11,566 nt of DNA from UHGV virus genome UHGV-1588268. One strand, given 5' to 3'. The notes below the pieces were generated by a model, which did not search any database, was not told the DNA's origin, and worked only from the letters and a program-made list of their open reading frames with translations. This document shows positions 208 through 8,884 of the stretch, one piece after another. Numbering within the stretch: position 1 is the first letter of the stretch; each line of letters opens with the position of its first letter. Source of the DNA: a virus. Made by a program: the position numbers and the translations under genes.

Positions 208-1458
208 GTGCTTACCGATACAAAATTAAAAAATCTCAAGCCGCAGGACAAACTGTACAAGGTCTCCGATCGTGACGGGCTGTATGTAGCTGTGCTTACG
301 TCAGGCACGGTCTCGTTTCGCTATGACTACCGTATCAACGGTCGCCGCGAAACACTGGTAATCGGGCAGTATGGGCGTGACGGTATCAGCCTGGCAGAAG
401 CGCGAGAAGAACTGATTGCTGCAAAGAAGCTGCTTAAAGCAGGCCAGTCACCGGCTGCGGCTAAACGTGACGGTATCAAAAAGATTCGTGGTGCCGAGAC
501 GTTTGCGGTACATACCGACAGTTATATGAAACACGTCATCCTGGCTGACAGTACCCGCGCAATGAAACAGGCGGTGATCGACCGTGACATACTTCCGGTT
601 CTTGGCAATAAAATGATGGCTGAAATTACCACATCAATGGTTCGTGATTTGTGTGACCGGATTGTCGAACGCGGTGGCCGGGCAACAGCAGTGCAGGCCA
701 GGGAGATCATCAGTAGCGTATACCGTCACGCCAATGACCGTGGTCATGGTTTGTTTAATCCTGCGGCTGACATTAAACCTTCGTCTATCGCCATATTTAA
801 ACCACGAGAGCGAACACTGACACCAGAAGAAATTGGCCTGTTCTTCCGCACGCTGGATGCCATTGGTGCTATGGGCACTATGAAAATGGCTTTAAAACTG
901 GTGCTTATCACTATGGTTCGTAAGGGCGAATTCACCAATGCAACGTGGGATGAAATAGATTTTAAAAAATGGACATGGACAATTCCTCCAGACCGCATGA
1001 AGGGAAGCCGGGCGCACGTTATTTACCTGCCCAAACAGGCACAGGATATATTGGTCGGGTTGCAGATGTGCGCTGGTGGAAGTGAATATCTGGTTCCTGG
1101 TCGTTACAATTTCCGGAAGCCATTATCTAATGCCGCGCTGAACTCTCTGATCGACAGAACGGTGAAAATAATAAATGAAGATGGTGAGCATATTCAGGAC
1201 TTCACTGTACATGATATGCGCCGTACAGCCAGTACGTTGTTGCATGAGGCTGGTTATCCTTCAGACTGGATTGAAAAGGCTCTGGCACATGAGCAGAAAG
1301 GTGTGCGCGCCGTATATAACAAAGCGGAATACGCCAGACAGCGCGCCTACATGTTGCAGCAGTGGGCCGATATGATTGATTCATGGATTGACGGGGAGCA
1401 TACGGATCTGATTCCGTTCTCCCCGTCGAAGTTTGAGAAGTGGATGGCGGGGGAATAA
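208..1458 (+). CDS. int: Tyrosine site-specific integrase, P4/CP4-57-like family
   Basis: 416-aa ORF with GTG start. N-terminus (LTDTKLKNLKPQDKLYKVSDRDGLYVAV...) matches the arm-binding domain typical of P4-family integrases; C-terminus carries H-x-x-R and a candidate catalytic Tyr (HDMRRTAS...VRAVYNKAEY). Family assignment from memory, not a search. Confidence 0.9.
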   Translation: MLTDTKLKNLKPQDKLYKVSDRDGLYVAVLTSGTVSFRYDYRINGRRETLVIGQYGRDGISLAEAREELIAAKKLLKAGQSPAAAKRDGIKKIRGAETFAVHTDSYMKHVILADSTRAMKQAVIDRDILPVLGNKMMAEITTSMVRDLCDRIVERGGRATAVQAREIISSVYRHANDRGHGLFNPAADIKPSSIAIFKPRERTLTPEEIGLFFRTLDAIGAMGTMKMALKLVLITMVRKGEFTNATWDEIDFKKWTWTIPPDRMKGSRAHVIYLPKQAQDILVGLQMCAGGSEYLVPGRYNFRKPLSNAALNSLIDRTVKIINEDGEHIQDFTVHDMRRTASTLLHEAGYPSDWIEKALAHEQKGVRAVYNKAEYARQRAYMLQQWADMIDSWIDGEHTDLIPFSPSKFEKWMAGE

Positions 1459-4034: not shown

Positions 4035-4934
4035 TTACTTCATTCTGAAGACGCGTTGTGTCGTTGTTGTTTTGAATTTTTCGAATAACTCAGGGTGTAC
4101 TGACTGGAATAGCTTCTGGTCGAATCTGTTGCTGATCTGAGATTTCCATGTGCAGAGCGGCTTTCCGTCCAGGGTCAGGACTGAGTGCTCTTGCATGTAC
4201 ATCTTCAGCTTCTCTTCTGATATAGCTATTTCTTCTTCCAGTGATTTTCTGCGTGACTTCATGTCTCGTAGATCGTTGAATAGTGCGAGTGCCTTTCCGT
4301 CAGCCTCGATACTTGTCCCGGCATCTTTCTCAAACATCAGCGATACATCGCTTACGCTGGTAGCTTCCGGCGGGTTAAGATTTTTCACTCGGTCCCAGAA
4401 AGCGATTTCTTTTTCTAAGATCGCCTGGATAGTTTCTTCATCACGCTCAACCCGATAGATTCGGAAGTCGTCGCCACCGATAAGCACACCGAAAACGCAT
4501 ACCTGTTTGTTTGTAACCATCAACCCGTGCATGGCCTGGGCCGTGTAATGCACAGGAATTGCATCTGTCTGGATTTCTCCCCATTCTTTGGCTTTGAACG
4601 GACTAACTGTTTTGATCTCAATGTTCTCGCCTGACGCTGCTTCTGCATCGATCTCAGCTGCAATAAAATCGTAATCACGGTGGATATAGCGGTTTCCGCG
4701 ATGAACGATTTCCATCCCTGTTTCCTCAGAAAGCAGGTCTATTACGTATGGCTCCATACGCTGGCCACGCGTGAAAACTTTCTGCTTGCTTGGGTCTACT
4801 GGTTTGACACGTGGCTGGACCTTATCCAGATAAACCTCAAGCGGGGTGCGCCATGGGCTAATTCCAAGAATCCCTGCAACATCGCTTCCTCCGATGTATT
4901 TTGTTCTATCCATGATTCCAGCGTTCTGCATCAT
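4035..4934 (-). CDS. YqaJ/lambda-Exo-like recombination exonuclease (PD-(D/E)xK)
   Basis: 299 aa. N-terminal DRTKYIGGSDVAGILGISPWRTPLEVY is typical of YqaJ-type phage exonucleases; sits immediately upstream of recT, the usual exo-recT pairing. Start overlaps the upstream stop (ATGA). Confidence 0.85.
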   Translation of the reverse strand: MMQNAGIMDRTKYIGGSDVAGILGISPWRTPLEVYLDKVQPRVKPVDPSKQKVFTRGQRMEPYVIDLLSEETGMEIVHRGNRYIHRDYDFIAAEIDAEAASGENIEIKTVSPFKAKEWGEIQTDAIPVHYTAQAMHGLMVTNKQVCVFGVLIGGDDFRIYRVERDEETIQAILEKEIAFWDRVKNLNPPEATSVSDVSLMFEKDAGTSIEADGKALALFNDLRDMKSRRKSLEEEIAISEEKLKMYMQEHSVLTLDGKPLCTWKSQISNRFDQKLFQSVHPELFEKFKTTTTQRVFRMK

Positions 4935-5230
4935 GCCGCTTCCCTCTGCCCATCAATCCGATCCGCCAGATCCCAGCGGGCGATAATTGCCATTGCCTCG
5001 CGCCGGTAGGAATCTATCAGTTCTTCGAACTCAGGGCTGTCTTTAGCAGCCTCCAGCACTTCCTGACGAACGCCTTTGCCTGTTACAACGTCGAAAGTTG
5101 AGGACAGTTGATGAAGTCGGATGCTCTCAATCAGTTCAACTTGTCGGTCATATAGCTGTTCTGACAGGCGGTAGTCCTTGTCGAATGCCAGCATGATTTT
5201 TTGAAGATTTTTCTGCTGATTAACGTTCAT
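4931..5230 (-). CDS. Hypothetical early protein (99 aa) upstream of the exo-recT pair
   Basis: ORF with GGGAGGG ribosome-binding site 6 nt before the ATG at 5230 (MNVNQQKNLQK...). The track's longer version starts at 5245. Coupled to exo via ATGA. No family recognised. Confidence 0.55.
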   Translation of the reverse strand: MNVNQQKNLQKIMLAFDKDYRLSEQLYDRQVELIESIRLHQLSSTFDVVTGKGVRQEVLEAAKDSPEFEELIDSYRREAMAIIARWDLADRIDGQREAA

Positions 5231-5232
5231 TA

Positions 5233-5385
5233 TCAGCCCTCCCATATCTCGTTATCGTTGGCTACATCGCGAGCTTCTTTGCTGACGAAAGCCCACTTAA
5301 TGCCTTCCTGTAAGGTGCGGAACTTCCAGCTCATGAATCCGCATGCAGTAACGCAGTACCAACCGTTGATGATTTTCCACTGCAT
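5233..5385 (-). CDS. Putative small Trp/Cys-rich protein (50 aa), first ORF of the leftward early operon
   Basis: Own translation: MQWKIINGWYCVTACGFMSWKFRTLQEGIKWAFVSKEARDVANDNEIWEG. GAGG ribosome-binding site 9 nt upstream; lies directly downstream of the putative leftward promoter and operators. Confidence 0.35.
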   Translation of the reverse strand: MQWKIINGWYCVTACGFMSWKFRTLQEGIKWAFVSKEARDVANDNEIWEG

Positions 5386-5404: not shown

Positions 5405-5481
5405 TTACCGTTGAGGTAATAATTATGCTTATTTGGTTTGGTGTCAATAGATATGAGTTAAAAAAATTACCCGTAAGGTAA
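5405..5481 (-). promoter_or_regulatory. Putative leftward early promoter with two operator palindromes
   Basis: Minus-strand -35 TTGACA (plus 5443-5448) and an A/T-rich -10 candidate (about 5418-5428), flanked by TTACCg-ttg-AGGTAA (5405-5419) and TTACCc-gta-AGGTAA (5467-5481). Confidence 0.45.
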
Positions 5482-5538: not shown

Positions 5539-6123
5539 TTATTGTTTGCTTTTTTCGTTCTGGTTGATGACAAATTCAATGTAACTTTCGATCTTTGCTT
5601 TCTCGGTTTCGGGTAACAATGCGTAGCGTGAGCGGTCATAGTTGATAGTCGCAGGGTCGTGCGGGTGAATCAGTAGTTCATATCCGTGACGCCCGAATGC
5701 GGATGCAACATTCTCCAGGGTGGAAATGGAAACGCTGACCTCATTGTTTAACAGGCGGCTGATTGTCACCTGGGCGACGCCGGATGCGCGGTGAAGTTTT
5801 CCCTGTGTTGAAAGGTCGCGGCTTTCGCTCATCCAGCGTTCCAGATTGTGAGCCGCCAGCTGACCTATATCGCTCGGGCCGACAGGCTGAAAACCCTCCT
5901 GAGAAAGCGAACGATCAATATCAAGCCAGTTACGGGGTTTATTGGCGGCAGCTTCAATTTTTCGTGCAACCTGGTCGCCGATAACCTTCTTGCCAAGAGC
6001 CCAGCGGTTTACCAGATTTGCCTGAGTTCCAAGTTTTTCTGCCATCCGCGTCTGAACACCATTGAATTCACGGTCGATCAAGTCGTTGAGATTTTGCCTG
6101 CGGACGTCCTGGATACTTTTCAT
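5539..6123 (-). CDS. Phage repressor candidate: tandem HTH (XRE/Cro-C1 type) DNA-binding protein, no S24 peptidase domain recognised
   Basis: 194 aa. Two HTH-like segments (QTRMAEKLGTQANLVNRWALGKK and KLHRASGVAQVTISRLLNNEVSVSISTLENVA). Divergent from a Cro-like gene with operator palindromes between them. C-terminal 45 aa show no Ala-Gly/Ser-Lys autocleavage signature. Confidence 0.75.
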   Translation of the reverse strand: MKSIQDVRRQNLNDLIDREFNGVQTRMAEKLGTQANLVNRWALGKKVIGDQVARKIEAAANKPRNWLDIDRSLSQEGFQPVGPSDIGQLAAHNLERWMSESRDLSTQGKLHRASGVAQVTISRLLNNEVSVSISTLENVASAFGRHGYELLIHPHDPATINYDRSRYALLPETEKAKIESYIEFVINQNEKSKQ

Positions 6124-6178: not shown

Positions 6179-6241
6179 TTACCCAACAGGTAAATGCACC
6201 TCATAGGTAACTATCCTTGATTTTTGTTACCTTATGGGTGA
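6179..6241. promoter_or_regulatory. Divergent immunity-region control region with three operator-like sites
   Basis: Sites TTACCc-aac-AGGTAA (6179-6193), gcACCT-cat-AGGTAA (6196-6210), TTACCT-tat-gGGTgA (6227-6241); candidate rightward -35 TTGATT (6217-6222) and -10 GAATAT (6240-6245) overlap the sites. Confidence 0.5.
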
Positions 6242-6277: not shown

Positions 6278-6508
6278 ATGAGCGATAACGGACATTTCGA
6301 TTTCAAAAAGCACTGGCTTGCACTTACTCCGGATGAGCGTGAAGCCTTCGCACAGGAAGCCGGAACGACGAGTCACTATATCCAGACTCACTTAACAGGC
6401 AAGCGCAAAATGCCAGGTAAGGTATTGATGAATGGGCTTTTTAAAGCCTGTAAAACAAGACAATGGCTGCGCTCAAAAGCAGAACTGGCATACTTCTTCT
6501 ACTCATGA
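6278..6508 (+). CDS. Cro/YdaS-like small HTH regulator
   Basis: 76 aa, divergent from the repressor; EAFAQEAGTTSHYIQTHLTGKRKMP resembles the HTH and Gly-Lys-Arg turn of Cro/YdaS-family proteins. Confidence 0.65.
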   Translation: MSDNGHFDFKKHWLALTPDEREAFAQEAGTTSHYIQTHLTGKRKMPGKVLMNGLFKACKTRQWLRSKAELAYFFYS

Positions 6509-6530
6509 TATCCAGCTACAACCCTCTGTA

Positions 6531-6555
6531 GACCGCCACCCGGCGGTCTTTTCAT
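6531..6555 (+). terminator. Rho-independent terminator-like hairpin downstream of the cro-like gene
   Basis: Stem GACCGCC (6531-6537) / GGCGGTC (6542-6548), loop ACCC, then TTTTCAT. Short T-tract, so moderate confidence. Confidence 0.5.
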
Positions 6556-6563
6556 ATCTATTC

Positions 6564-6578
6564 GTACCTCAAAGGTAA
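6564..6578. promoter_or_regulatory. Operator palindrome gTACCT-caa-AGGTAA between the cro terminator and the replication genes
   Basis: Seen in sequence; same motif family as the immunity-region sites. TTGATCAA (6592-6599) just downstream could be a -35 element. Confidence 0.45.
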
Positions 6579-6656: not shown

Positions 6657-6869
6657 TTGAAGATAGTAACCAGAATGGAGGCCGCAAAAGCCGGGTTAAA
6701 TCGCTATTTCACAGGAAAGCGGTGCCGTCACGGCCATCTCTCTGAAAGGTATGTTCTGAACGGAACATGTGTTGAATGTGCAATGAATAGCGCCAACCGC
6801 CATCGTAATGAATTTGCTTGTGCACTAAAGAGTGCAAGAGGGGAAACCTATGGCAAGCAGCTGGATTAA
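6657..6869 (+). CDS. Small Zn-ribbon-like protein (70 aa) in the cII position
   Basis: ORF with TTG start and AAGGGG ribosome-binding site (alternative ATG at 6675). Cys/His pattern C-x-H-x-H...C-x-x-C (GKRCRHGHLSERYVLNGTCVEC). Overlaps the start of the O-like gene. No family recognised. Confidence 0.5.
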   Translation: MKIVTRMEAAKAGLNRYFTGKRCRHGHLSERYVLNGTCVECAMNSANRHRNEFACALKSARGETYGKQLD

Positions 6870-7674
6870 GGTTGAAGTTATCACTCCTGATAAACCTGAA
6901 ATTTTTCAGATAGCAGAAATTCTGGGTATTGATCCAGATGCTGTTCTTGGAAAGCTGGTTCGTATATGGGCATGGGCTGACCAGCAAACAATAGACGGTA
7001 ACGCTGGCAGCGTTACAAAAGGAGTACTTGATAGACTCGCTTTTATTACAGGATTTGCTGACGCCCTCATTAGCGTCGGATGGCTTGCTTATCATGACGG
7101 CAAACTAATTCTTCCAAACTTTGAGCGACATAATGGAGAATCATCGAAAAAACGTGCACTTACGAATAGAAGAGTGGCAGAGCATCGAAAACGAGTAACG
7201 CAAAAAGTAACGCCAACAGCGTTACAAAAGGAGTTACCAGAGGAAGAGGAAGATATATATAAAACCCCACACATAGCGCACGTGCGCGAGGGTGCTCCGA
7301 CCAGTGAAGCGAACAGTACGCCGTTGCAGGTGGCAGAACCTGAATTTCTGGATGGCCTGAGTGAACCCATCGGGAAATTTCCGATGACAGATGGCTGGCT
7401 ACCGTCGCCAGATTTTCGGTGGCGTGCTGCGCTGTGGGGAACGGCCCTGCCGGAACCGGAATTTACACCTGCTGAACTTGCTGCATTCCGGGATTACTGG
7501 ATGGCTGAGGGCAAAGTGTTCACGCAGGTTCAGTGGGAACAAAAATTCGCCAGGCACGTAAATCATATCAGGGGAAAATCAAAAAATGCCGGGAAAAGCG
7601 ATGAGCTTGACTGGAATAACACTGACTGGATAGAAGGGGTGTGGGATGAAATCAACTCCAGAACTTCTCAATGA
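6850..7674 (+). CDS. Replication initiator, O-like: N-terminal phage replisome-organizer domain plus C-terminal DnaT-like domain
   Basis: N-terminus MASSWIKVEV...IWAWADQ fits the phage replisome-organizer N-domain. C-terminus (GKFPMTDGWLPSPDFRWRAALWGTALPEPEFTPAELAAFRDYWMAEGKVFTQVQWEQKFARHV) aligns closely with E. coli DnaT as I remember it. AGAGGGGA ribosome-binding site. Confidence 0.8.
   Translation: MASSWIKVEVITPDKPEIFQIAEILGIDPDAVLGKLVRIWAWADQQTIDGNAGSVTKGVLDRLAFITGFADALISVGWLAYHDGKLILPNFERHNGESSKKRALTNRRVAEHRKRVTQKVTPTALQKELPEEEEDIYKTPHIAHVREGAPTSEANSTPLQVAEPEFLDGLSEPIGKFPMTDGWLPSPDFRWRAALWGTALPEPEFTPAELAAFRDYWMAEGKVFTQVQWEQKFARHVNHIRGKSKNAGKSDELDWNNTDWIEGVWDEINSRTSQ
6998..7234. repeat. 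Iteron-like repeats inside the O-like gene (candidate origin): GTAACGC-N5-GCGTTAC-AAAAGGAGT twice
   Basis: Copy 1 at 6998-7025, copy 2 at 7207-7234, plus an extra GTAACGC at 7195-7201 and CATCGAAAA(A)ACG direct repeats at 7143-7196. The two copies fall in different reading frames of the O-like gene. An A/T-rich tract follows at 7243-7262. Confidence 0.4.
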
Positions 7675-8422
7675 GTACGATCGCTTACGTGAGCATGGTG
7701 TTGCTGTGCATGAAGAGCGGCGTGACAGCAATGGCAAAAAGGAGCAGGTTGCTAGAATTTTCAATGAACTATTTGTCCAGTTACAGGCTGCATTTCCTGC
7801 AAGCGTTTCGACCATAAGGGAGCAGAACAAACTTAATGAATTCCGTAAGCAATGGATGCTTGCGTTTCTGGAGAATGGGATCACTACAATGGAACAGGTT
7901 AACGCTGGTATGCGCCACGCCCGCGCCAGTGAATCTCCGTTCTGGCCGTCGCCAGGGCAATTCATCAAGTGGTGCAAAGACAGCAAGATGGTTCTTGGCG
8001 TCACCATTGACGATGTGATGGCGGAGTTTCACCGGTACAGCAAGGAAAAAAGTTTATATCCTGGTGGTCCCGAAAGATTCCCGTGGCGGCATCCGGTTAT
8101 GTACTGGGTCGTATGTGATACCCGTCGTGCAATGTATCAGCGCCAGCTTAGCGAGAGTGAGGTTGAGAAACACGCGCGCAGGCTGCTCGATGATTGGGCG
8201 AAAAAGGTGGCTTCCGGACAGCAGATACCCGATCCGGTGATCAGCATACAGGCAAAGCCAGAGCCCATGAGTACACCTCCGGACACAGGGAGAGACGTTT
8301 ACCATCCACCAGGGCGAAGTTTCGGGTGCATGCCTAACGCCGCCACCCTTTGGGGAATAACACCGGCGCAGTGGCTGATGGAGGAATACAGGCGGGGAAA
8401 GGCGGCAGGATTTATCAAGTAA
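7646..8422 (+). CDS. Replication protein P-like (DnaB helicase loader)
   Basis: 258 aa. QLQAAFPASVSTIREQNKLNEFRKQWMLAFLENGITTMEQVNAGMRHAR...FWPSPGQFIKWC matches lambda P (ATFPASL...WVLAFRENGITTMEQVNAGMRVAR...FLPSPGQFVAWC) as I remember it. Overlaps the O-like gene end; AAGGGG ribosome-binding site. Confidence 0.88.
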   Translation: MKSTPELLNEYDRLREHGVAVHEERRDSNGKKEQVARIFNELFVQLQAAFPASVSTIREQNKLNEFRKQWMLAFLENGITTMEQVNAGMRHARASESPFWPSPGQFIKWCKDSKMVLGVTIDDVMAEFHRYSKEKSLYPGGPERFPWRHPVMYWVVCDTRRAMYQRQLSESEVEKHARRLLDDWAKKVASGQQIPDPVISIQAKPEPMSTPPDTGRDVYHPPGRSFGCMPNAATLWGITPAQWLMEEYRRGKAAGFIK

Positions 8423-8459
8423 TACCAGCGCGATAGCGCATTTTTTTACGCCTCGATAA

Positions 8460-8536
8460 TTACCTGTTAGGTAACAAAATATTATAAACTCTATTGATTT
8501 CATGTCTTATGTGGTTTTTAATTACCTCAGAGGTAA
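8460..8536. promoter_or_regulatory. Two perfect operator palindromes flanking a putative promoter upstream of the DUF1064-like gene
   Basis: TTACCT-gtt-AGGTAA (8460-8474) and TTACCT-cag-AGGTAA (8522-8536), the latter ending 3 nt before the ATG and containing the GAGG Shine-Dalgarno; TTGATT -35 candidate at 8494-8499. Confidence 0.5.
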
Positions 8537-8539
8537 ATC

Positions 8540-8884
8540 ATGAGAAAACAGATACAGGCTCTTGGTCGACTCAAAACAGGCCAGATGAACAAAACTGAAT
8601 CTGCGTATTGCCAGCACCTTGAGCTGCGTAAACGTGCAGGGGAAATCGCCTGGTATCGATTCGAGGGTATCAAGCTGCGGTTAGCTGACAACACGTTCTA
8701 TACGCCAGATTTCGCTGTGATGCTCGCCACCGGAGAGATGGAACTGCACGAAGTGAAAGGTTTCTGGACCGACGACGCCAGGGTGAAAACCAAAGTCGCC
8801 GCAGATCAGTATCCGTTCCGAATCATCGGGGTAACGGTTAAACCAAAGAAAGCAGGTGGTGGCTGGAACATCGAAGAGTTCTGA
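8540..8884 (+). CDS. DUF1064-like phage protein with PD-(D/E)xK nuclease signature
   Basis: 114 aa. YTPDFAV...ELHEVKG gives a D...E-x-K arrangement; size and context (after the replication genes) match DUF1064-type proteins. Family from memory. Confidence 0.7.
   Translation: MRKQIQALGRLKTGQMNKTESAYCQHLELRKRAGEIAWYRFEGIKLRLADNTFYTPDFAVMLATGEMELHEVKGFWTDDARVKTKVAADQYPFRIIGVTVKPKKAGGGWNIEEF

Follow-up and report, generated by a model that had tools for sequence, protein, structure and literature searches.

Identity of the window and organization of its genes

The window (the whole stretch of DNA analysed, 11,566 nucleotides of the virus genome UHGV-1588268) is approximately 99% identical to Escherichia phage vB_EcoP_ZX5 (ZX5), as found by sequence comparison. 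TL-2011b shows 97% identity to the window, and phiV10 97% identity over the parts that it shares with it. All three phages are members of the genus Uetakevirus, and the window is a Uetakevirus prophage of the epsilon15/phiV10 group, i.e. an epsilon15-like podovirus. Its positions 1-17 are the att core attgagtgggaatgatt, as reported for ZX5, whose integration site is the 3' end of guaA (ZX5 paper). As the window begins with this core, its start may be a prophage junction. The genes referred to below are as follows:

208-1458, plus strand: integrase gene
ending at 5385: leftward early operon
5539-6123, minus strand: repressor gene (rep), whose product is the presumed palindrome binder (full-length match to SPC32H Rep, PDB 5D50, E 3.5e-42)
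6278-6508, plus strand: cro-like gene (PHROG 35, 'transcriptional repressor')
6657-6869: small ORF
6832-7674: DnaT-like gene
7646-8422, plus strand: P-like replication gene, the last of the replication unit (Pfam Phage_lambda_P, E 4.9e-56; 'DNA replication protein' in ZX5)
8540-8884, plus strand: DUF1064 gene, the first of the downstream unit (Pfam DUF1064, 31 bits versus a cut-off of 24.7)

Rep of the window shares 42% identity with its counterpart in phage SPC32H, and all Rep types have the same N-terminal motif NLVNRW. Pfam analysis of the window repressor identified HTH families only, and an S24 peptidase domain was not found. As the repressor is a homologue of SPC32H Rep with an HTH part and no S24 domain, the phage is not lambdoid, despite its lambda P-like gene. 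The lambdoid framing used in a preliminary description of this DNA had to be abandoned: we are dealing with a Uetakevirus that carries a repressor of the SPC32H Rep type.

The product of the DUF1064 gene matched PHROG 190 ('Holliday junction resolvase', E 7e-43) and showed weak similarity to T7 endonuclease I. It is probably a Holliday junction resolvase.

Two palindromes and a candidate promoter upstream of the DUF1064 gene

The region of interest had been placed between a P-like and a DUF1064-like gene, and the Pfam matches of both flanking genes bear this out. It contains the following features:

8428-8447, plus strand: terminator-like hairpin GCGC-GATA-GCGC (8428-8439) followed by a run of 7 T (8441-8447); fold of -7.4 kcal/mol
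8460-8474: distal operator TTACC-TGTTA-GGTAA, TTACCTGTTAGGTAA, a predicted Rep site
8476-8482, plus strand: AAAATAT, within the A/T-rich tract 8475-8493, conserved in alignments
8494-8499, plus strand: -35 hexamer TTGATT, with 0.3% minor alleles in 65 relatives
8510-8514, plus strand: TGTGG, a conserved motif in the promoter spacer
8517-8522, plus strand: -10-like hexamer TTTAAT, 17 nt after the -35 hexamer and in the same register as the -10 hexamer of PL (AATTAT)
8522-8536: proximal operator TTACC-TCAGA-GGTAA, TTACCTCAGAGGTAA, a predicted Rep site

Several statements of the preliminary description could be read directly from the sequence. The palindromes are indeed 47 bp apart (8475-8521; 62 bp start to start or centre to centre) and bracket TTGATT, and the proximal one does hold the Shine-Dalgarno sequence (GAGGT, 8530-8534) and ends 3 nt (ATC) before the ATG of the DUF1064 gene at 8540. 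The interval between the palindromes is 79% A+T, versus 52% for the whole window.

It had also been claimed that the window contains only two perfect copies of TTACCT-N3-AGGTAA, and a zero-mismatch scan found just those at 8460 and 8522. When up to 2 mismatches were allowed, 10 matches were obtained in the window versus 0.23 expected (200 shuffles). The looser core TTACC-N5-GGTAA occurs there in 5 perfect copies (5405, 5467, 6179, 8460 and 8522) versus 0.01 expected, so the uniqueness of the pair holds for the 6-N3-6 form only. The operators on either side of the repressor gene (5405/5467 and 6179/6196/6227) share their motif with the two palindromes. Nothing other than the A/T richness of this intergenic region speaks for the view that the two motif matches arose by chance. 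This view retains practically no probability, being refuted by the five perfect core matches and by the invariance of the half-sites across host genera (see below).

The palindromes could also be thought to act as RNA hairpins, the proximal one hiding the Shine-Dalgarno sequence in read-through transcripts and so controlling translation of DUF1064, as it includes GAGGT and is able to pair into a 5-6 bp stem. However, the folds are weak (approximately -4 kcal/mol) and no better than those of shuffled sequences (z from -1.1 to -1.7), the stems are invariant instead of covarying, with loops that vary, and the same motif is present where no coding start follows. RNA-level control by the palindromes thus seems extremely unlikely. 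An Rfam search gave no match at gathering thresholds, and at relaxed settings only a chance snoRNA match (E 0.074). The palindromes were likewise rejected as intrinsic terminators, given their A/T-rich stems, folds of about -4 kcal/mol and the lack of a T-run after either of them.

A more plausible terminator is the hairpin at 8428-8447, which separates the replication unit from the operator pair and whose phiV10 homologue is annotated as a putative rho-independent terminator. Its stem and T-run are kept in the E. coli, Salmonella, Enterobacter and Klebsiella relatives, with a variable loop. As the stem is just 4 bp long, the terminator is probably leaky, and read-through from PR may add to, or even account for much of, the expression of the DUF1064 unit.

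As a candidate sigma-70 promoter, the element has a 17-nt spacer between the -35 and the -10-like hexamers, in a position and register that are conserved and identical to those of PL. TTGATT-17-TTTAAT matches the consensus at 9 of 12 positions. Position 2 of the -10 hexamer is a T and not the critical A, so the consensus scanner did not call the promoter. This position is T in most clades of the present element versus always A in PL, which indicates that the promoter may be weak or need help. The proximal operator begins with the last T of TTTAAT. With the -10 hexamer at 8517-8522, transcription would start near 8529-8531, leaving a leader of only about 10 nt, so the start near 8510-8525 proposed earlier is probably slightly too far upstream. 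The proximal operator would accordingly span the edge of the -10 hexamer, the predicted start and the Shine-Dalgarno sequence. We infer that the tract with AAAATAT is possibly a UP-element-like region.

The spacer of this element keeps TGTGG (or TATGG) in phages of four host genera; the PL cassettes lack the motif.

Two other promoter candidates were considered and rejected. The best scanner match in the region is a minus-strand promoter directed toward the P-like gene (AAGACA-16-TATAAT, 8508 to 8481), which is not conserved. It is probably a chance match, since its -10 hexamer falls within the segment that varies most and is missing from phiV10, SPC32H and other relatives. The plus-strand candidate TTACCT-17-TATAAA (8460-8488) was dismissed for the same reason, i.e. 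a -10 hexamer in a variable segment that is not conserved.

Related operator sites in the window and in ZX5

Other copies of the motif in the window are as follows:

151-165: operator-like site TTACCTTAAAGGTAT, with one mismatch, upstream of the integrase gene
5405-5481, minus strand: PL cassette, in which the operators 5405-5419 and 5467-5481 (OL) flank TTGACA-17-AATTAT, a promoter called by the scanner
6179-6241: OR, a cluster of three operators (6179, 6196 and 6227) in the gap between rep and the cro-like gene
6564-6578: single operator-like site GTACCTCAAAGGTAA just after the terminator of the cro-like gene (6530-6549)

The OL pair is located downstream of the repressor gene. The PL cassette and the 8460-8536 element have a common geometry: an operator, 19 nt, TTGAnn, and a second operator that begins 28 nt after the start of the -35 hexamer, with the operator centres 62 bp apart. 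They also have the block TCTATTGA in common. This identical layout makes the 8460-8536 element a second, rightward-facing version of the PL design.

The GTACCTCAAAGGTAA site is conserved in relatives, with a degenerate left half. In the segment 6530-6601, a strong terminator (6530-6549) is followed by this site and then, 17 nt on, by TTGATC, and the segment looks like a third terminator-operator-promoter junction, placed before the replication genes. The site TTACCTTAAAGGTAT is preceded by a terminator (62-85) and followed, approximately 45 nt on, by the integrase start. Both ZX5 and epsilon15 (26882) have retained it with the same single mismatch, which suggests repressor control of int.

In the ZX5 genome, 91.4% of which is coding, 14 sites with no more than one mismatch were found, all 14 of them intergenic. 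They precede the antirepressor region, tail fibre, integrase, PL, PR, the replication unit, the DUF1064 unit, terminase and the head genes. In Uetakevirus the palindrome precedes almost every transcription unit. With no S24 domain in the repressor and with sites also at 151, 6564, 8460 and 8522 in the window and throughout ZX5, a lambdoid CI/OL-OR system could be rejected.

At 19625-19657 of ZX5, the gene for the small terminase subunit is directly preceded by two operators 18 bp apart, of which the second stops 2 nt short of the ATG. The same pair is found at 8400-8434 of locus L004 and at 12-44 of epsilon15; the corresponding locus would lie just past the end of the window. This arrangement implies direct repressor control of late genes.

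Conservation of the element across relatives

Both palindromes, at the 62-bp distance, are present in every relative identified by flanking similarity (phiV10, SPC32H, BUCT554, Tyrion, three Klebsiella phages and epsilon15), together with the terminator, the -35 hexamer and the -10 region. The module is retained in E. coli, Salmonella, Enterobacter and Klebsiella phages despite differing upstream replication genes and a differing downstream gene. The slot after it is occupied by a gene for a RuvC-like resolvase in Tyrion and epsilon15 (4669-5133 in locus L005; 35987-36451 in epsilon15) or else by DUF1064, as in the window, a non-orthologous displacement that supports the resolvase role of the DUF1064 protein. 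As the replication module upstream varies too, the cassette marks a module junction. It was considered whether the cassette is a property of the DUF1064 gene itself. No such cassette was found at the DUF1064 genes of F116, Vibrio phi 2, Bcep176 and AbIPP1, where the homologues sit inside operons, and the idea was rejected, as DUF1064 genes of unrelated phages do without it.

For a quantitative view, 80 viral loci were picked by DUF1064 protein similarity, giving 65 distinct upstream sequences. No indels were found among the 65, and the operator spacing is unchanged. Minor alleles averaged 0.2% per column in the 20 half-site columns and 0.3% in those of the -35 hexamer, versus 25.8% in the 10 columns of the two 5-bp operator centres and 6.7% in the other intergenic columns. 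The 65 sequences are related and the counts are hence not independent events, but the contrast between half-sites and centres is still very large. Judging from this alignment, the operator half-sites are under strong purifying selection. Conserved half-sites around a free centre are the pattern expected for a dimer-bound site.

In relatives that share 97-100% identity in the genes on either side, the centres (8465-8469 and 8527-8531) vary far more than the adjacent unconstrained intergenic DNA. This hypervariability could stem from diversifying selection, from a mutational hot spot or from exchange between the operator copies.

A further scan of viral contigs for operator pairs required perfect half-sites and was used only for the position of the -35 hexamer and for the downstream genes. 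In 142 of the 144 distinct 62-bp pairs, one operator is followed at exactly 19 nt by TTGA, always in the same orientation. Nine sequence clusters with unrelated inter-operator DNA all keep TTGAnn-17-nnnnAT in the same register, and in one divergent clade TTGAAA-17-CAGTAT occupies this register within an otherwise unrelated inter-operator sequence.

These data bear on the view that Rep binds both sites with no functional promoter between them, so that the pair would be a roadblock to PR read-through or an anchor looping to OR/OL that strengthens repression of the switch. The poor -10 hexamer (T at position 2), which left the promoter uncalled by the scanner, is in keeping with this view, as are the weak terminator, which makes read-through plausible, and the ability of a Rep tetramer to bridge sites. 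However, a promoterless pair does not explain why TTGA is held at a fixed distance and in one orientation in nearly all operator pairs, nor why the divergent clade keeps the register. In addition, the geometry is identical to that of PL, whose promoter is near-consensus, and the conserved terminator directly upstream implies that transcription must restart. We regard the absence of a functional promoter as unlikely.

Among species-representative bacterial genomes, all 6 full-length Rep homologues were accompanied by an OL pair, an OR cluster and the present pair. Relatives with an altered half-site were sought in phage records, viral contigs and species-representative genomes, but TTACC/GGTAA was the only form present beside full-length Rep homologues. 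The centres, in turn, differ between Rep types. In genomes with an SPC32H-type Rep (42-64% identical to that of the window), A/T-tract centres (AAAAA, ATTTT, ATAAA) are found at OL, OR and the distal site; in those with a window-type Rep, the centres at these places are mixed, with the same half-sites. This covariation of centre composition with Rep type is a weaker form of operator-repressor covariation, and it suggests that the operator centres may carry immunity specificity.

The palindromes might instead be bound mainly by a protein other than Rep, e.g. by the cro-like protein (6278-6508), which would lower expression of the unit in lytic growth. This protein matches a PHROG of transcriptional repressors (see the gene list), and in lambda-type switches, according to textbook knowledge, Cro and the repressor share operators. 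However, the sites are the same in kind as those flanking rep and their centre composition tracks the Rep type; moreover, Cro of the telomere phages is reported to bind one operator only, and the prophage repressor all of them (PMC4997575). A mainly Rep-independent function of the pair seems very improbable to us, but Rep and the cro-like protein could share the sites, which would be compatible with Rep control.

Proposed mechanism

Based on these observations, we consider it highly probable that Rep, the repressor encoded by the prophage itself, uses the two palindromes as operators and that together with a sigma-70-type promoter these form a Rep-controlled cassette. Direct control by Rep of a separate post-replication promoter is the best reading because of the shared motif, the conserved -35 hexamer that the operators flank and the strong purifying selection. 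This part of the preliminary description stands, by comparison with relatives, but the notion that such control is a surprising departure from lambdoid rules does not.

The cassette would be a self-contained promoter-operator element (-35 at 8494-8499, -10 at 8517-8522) located just after the terminator of the replication genes. As this terminator precedes it, the next unit needs its own promoter, and the cassette would drive that unit, which begins with the putative DUF1064 Holliday junction resolvase gene. The distance of 62 bp corresponds to 5.9 helical turns between the centres, placing both operators on the same face of the DNA. With the promoter bracketed by same-face operators, Rep bound at the two of them would most likely act by keeping RNA polymerase off the promoter.

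SPC32H Rep is described, in passages of PMC9638917 and PMC9986798 that both cite Kim et al. 2016, as binding palindromic DNA as a tetramer in which each DNA-binding pair consists of domains from different dimers. A single Rep tetramer, with its two DNA-binding dimers, could occupy the two sites at once and exclude RNA polymerase. Bridging by a single tetramer is possibly how the pair works, but this is a conjecture, as a 62-bp loop is tight. We infer Rep binding at 8460-8474 and 8522-8536, promoter activity and one-tetramer bridging from sequence data.

In the lysogen, Rep would silence the DUF1064 unit independently of PR. Passages in papers citing the SPC32H work state that SPC32H Rep is inactivated by an antirepressor and not by RecA-mediated cleavage. 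Once Rep is inactivated, the DUF1064 unit would be switched on at the same time as PL, PR and the other units guarded by operators. Each unit of the genome would thus be separately guarded, and all would be released together on induction.

A broader hypothesis, which we offer only tentatively and think rather doubtful in its entirety, joins these elements. In this phage genus, tetrameric Rep may clamp promoters in 62-bp microloops formed by operator pairs and, with terminators at the unit ends, parallel de-repression of at least 7 guarded units, late genes included, could replace an antitermination cascade of the lambda style. Moreover, the free 5-bp centres, A/T tracts with one Rep type but mixed and hypervariable with the other, may set immunity specificity by indirect readout despite shared half-sites.

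The operator-promoter layout is standard for the epsilon15/phiV10 group. As a discovery the cassette adds little: a homologous site has already been marked by prediction in epsilon15, and operators scattered over a phage genome have precedents, so its layout is not new. It illustrates, however, that these phages would silence their genes in a way other than lambda, each terminator-bounded unit having its own operator-guarded promoter, and this helps to predict prophage expression in a lysogen. Phages of the epsilon15/phiV10 group serve as reporters and for typing in work on E. coli O157 and Salmonella, and in phage engineering an insert placed downstream of 8540 would fall under direct repressor control. 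The fixed 62-bp operator pairs may also help to interpret the unusual tetrameric Rep structure, as a concrete substrate on which two-site binding could be probed.

Comparison with known systems

The closest precedent is epsilon15. Its RefSeq record (NC_004775) contains a protein_bind feature 'repressor' at 35906-35922, the homologue of 8460-8474, which lies between the last replication gene and a Holliday junction resolvase gene, as in the window. The palindrome is the same (ATTACC-N5-GGTAAT, 15-17 bp), but the downstream gene encodes a RuvC-like resolvase in epsilon15 and a DUF1064 protein in the window. Other sites are annotated in epsilon15 before the terminase, gp3, head and tail-fibre genes, and three at OL. 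As far as could be verified, these repressor-site annotations are predictions. Only the distal site of the pair is marked there; the proximal site (35969-35983), the OR sites and the relation to the PL twin are unannotated. The operators are not described in the ZX5 paper.

In SPC32H the same operator pair stands before the DUF1064 gene (4534 and 4596 of locus L003), with A/T tracts as operator centres in contrast to the mixed centres of the window. The Rep/Ant lysis-lysogeny switch of this phage was reportedly the subject of Kim and Ryu 2013 and Kim et al. 2016 (PDB 5D50 and 5D4Z).

The palindromic operators of lambda CI overlap the early promoters and are bound cooperatively at multiple sites, with looping between the operator sets. 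In lambda, however, operators are found at OL and OR only, and the downstream genes are controlled via N and Q antitermination. By contrast, operators of the window phage precede many terminator-bounded units, and its repressor is devoid of the S24 self-cleavage domain.

Dispersed operators, with one immunity repressor acting at many distant sites, are known from P1 (C1), mycobacteriophage L5 (the stoperators of gp71), Streptomyces phage phiC31 (the inverted repeats of the c repressor) and coliphage 186 (CI at pB), and their targets include promoters of replication, late-regulator or structural genes. The sites of P1 and L5 are asymmetric, and those of L5 block elongation in an orientation-dependent manner, whereas the sites of the window are symmetric and bracket a promoter, and its repressor is unrelated to the P1, L5, phiC31 and 186 proteins. 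A stoperator of the L5 type was rejected for the present pair, since its sites are perfect palindromes, intergenic and arranged around a promoter.

Another partial analogy is provided by N15 and phiKO2, in which CB binds an OL operator pair that overlaps the repA promoter, outside the cB-cro switch (PMC4997575). Those operators adjoin the repressor gene and control plasmid replication, while the pair in the window is located approximately 2.3 kb away from its repressor gene, beyond the replication genes.
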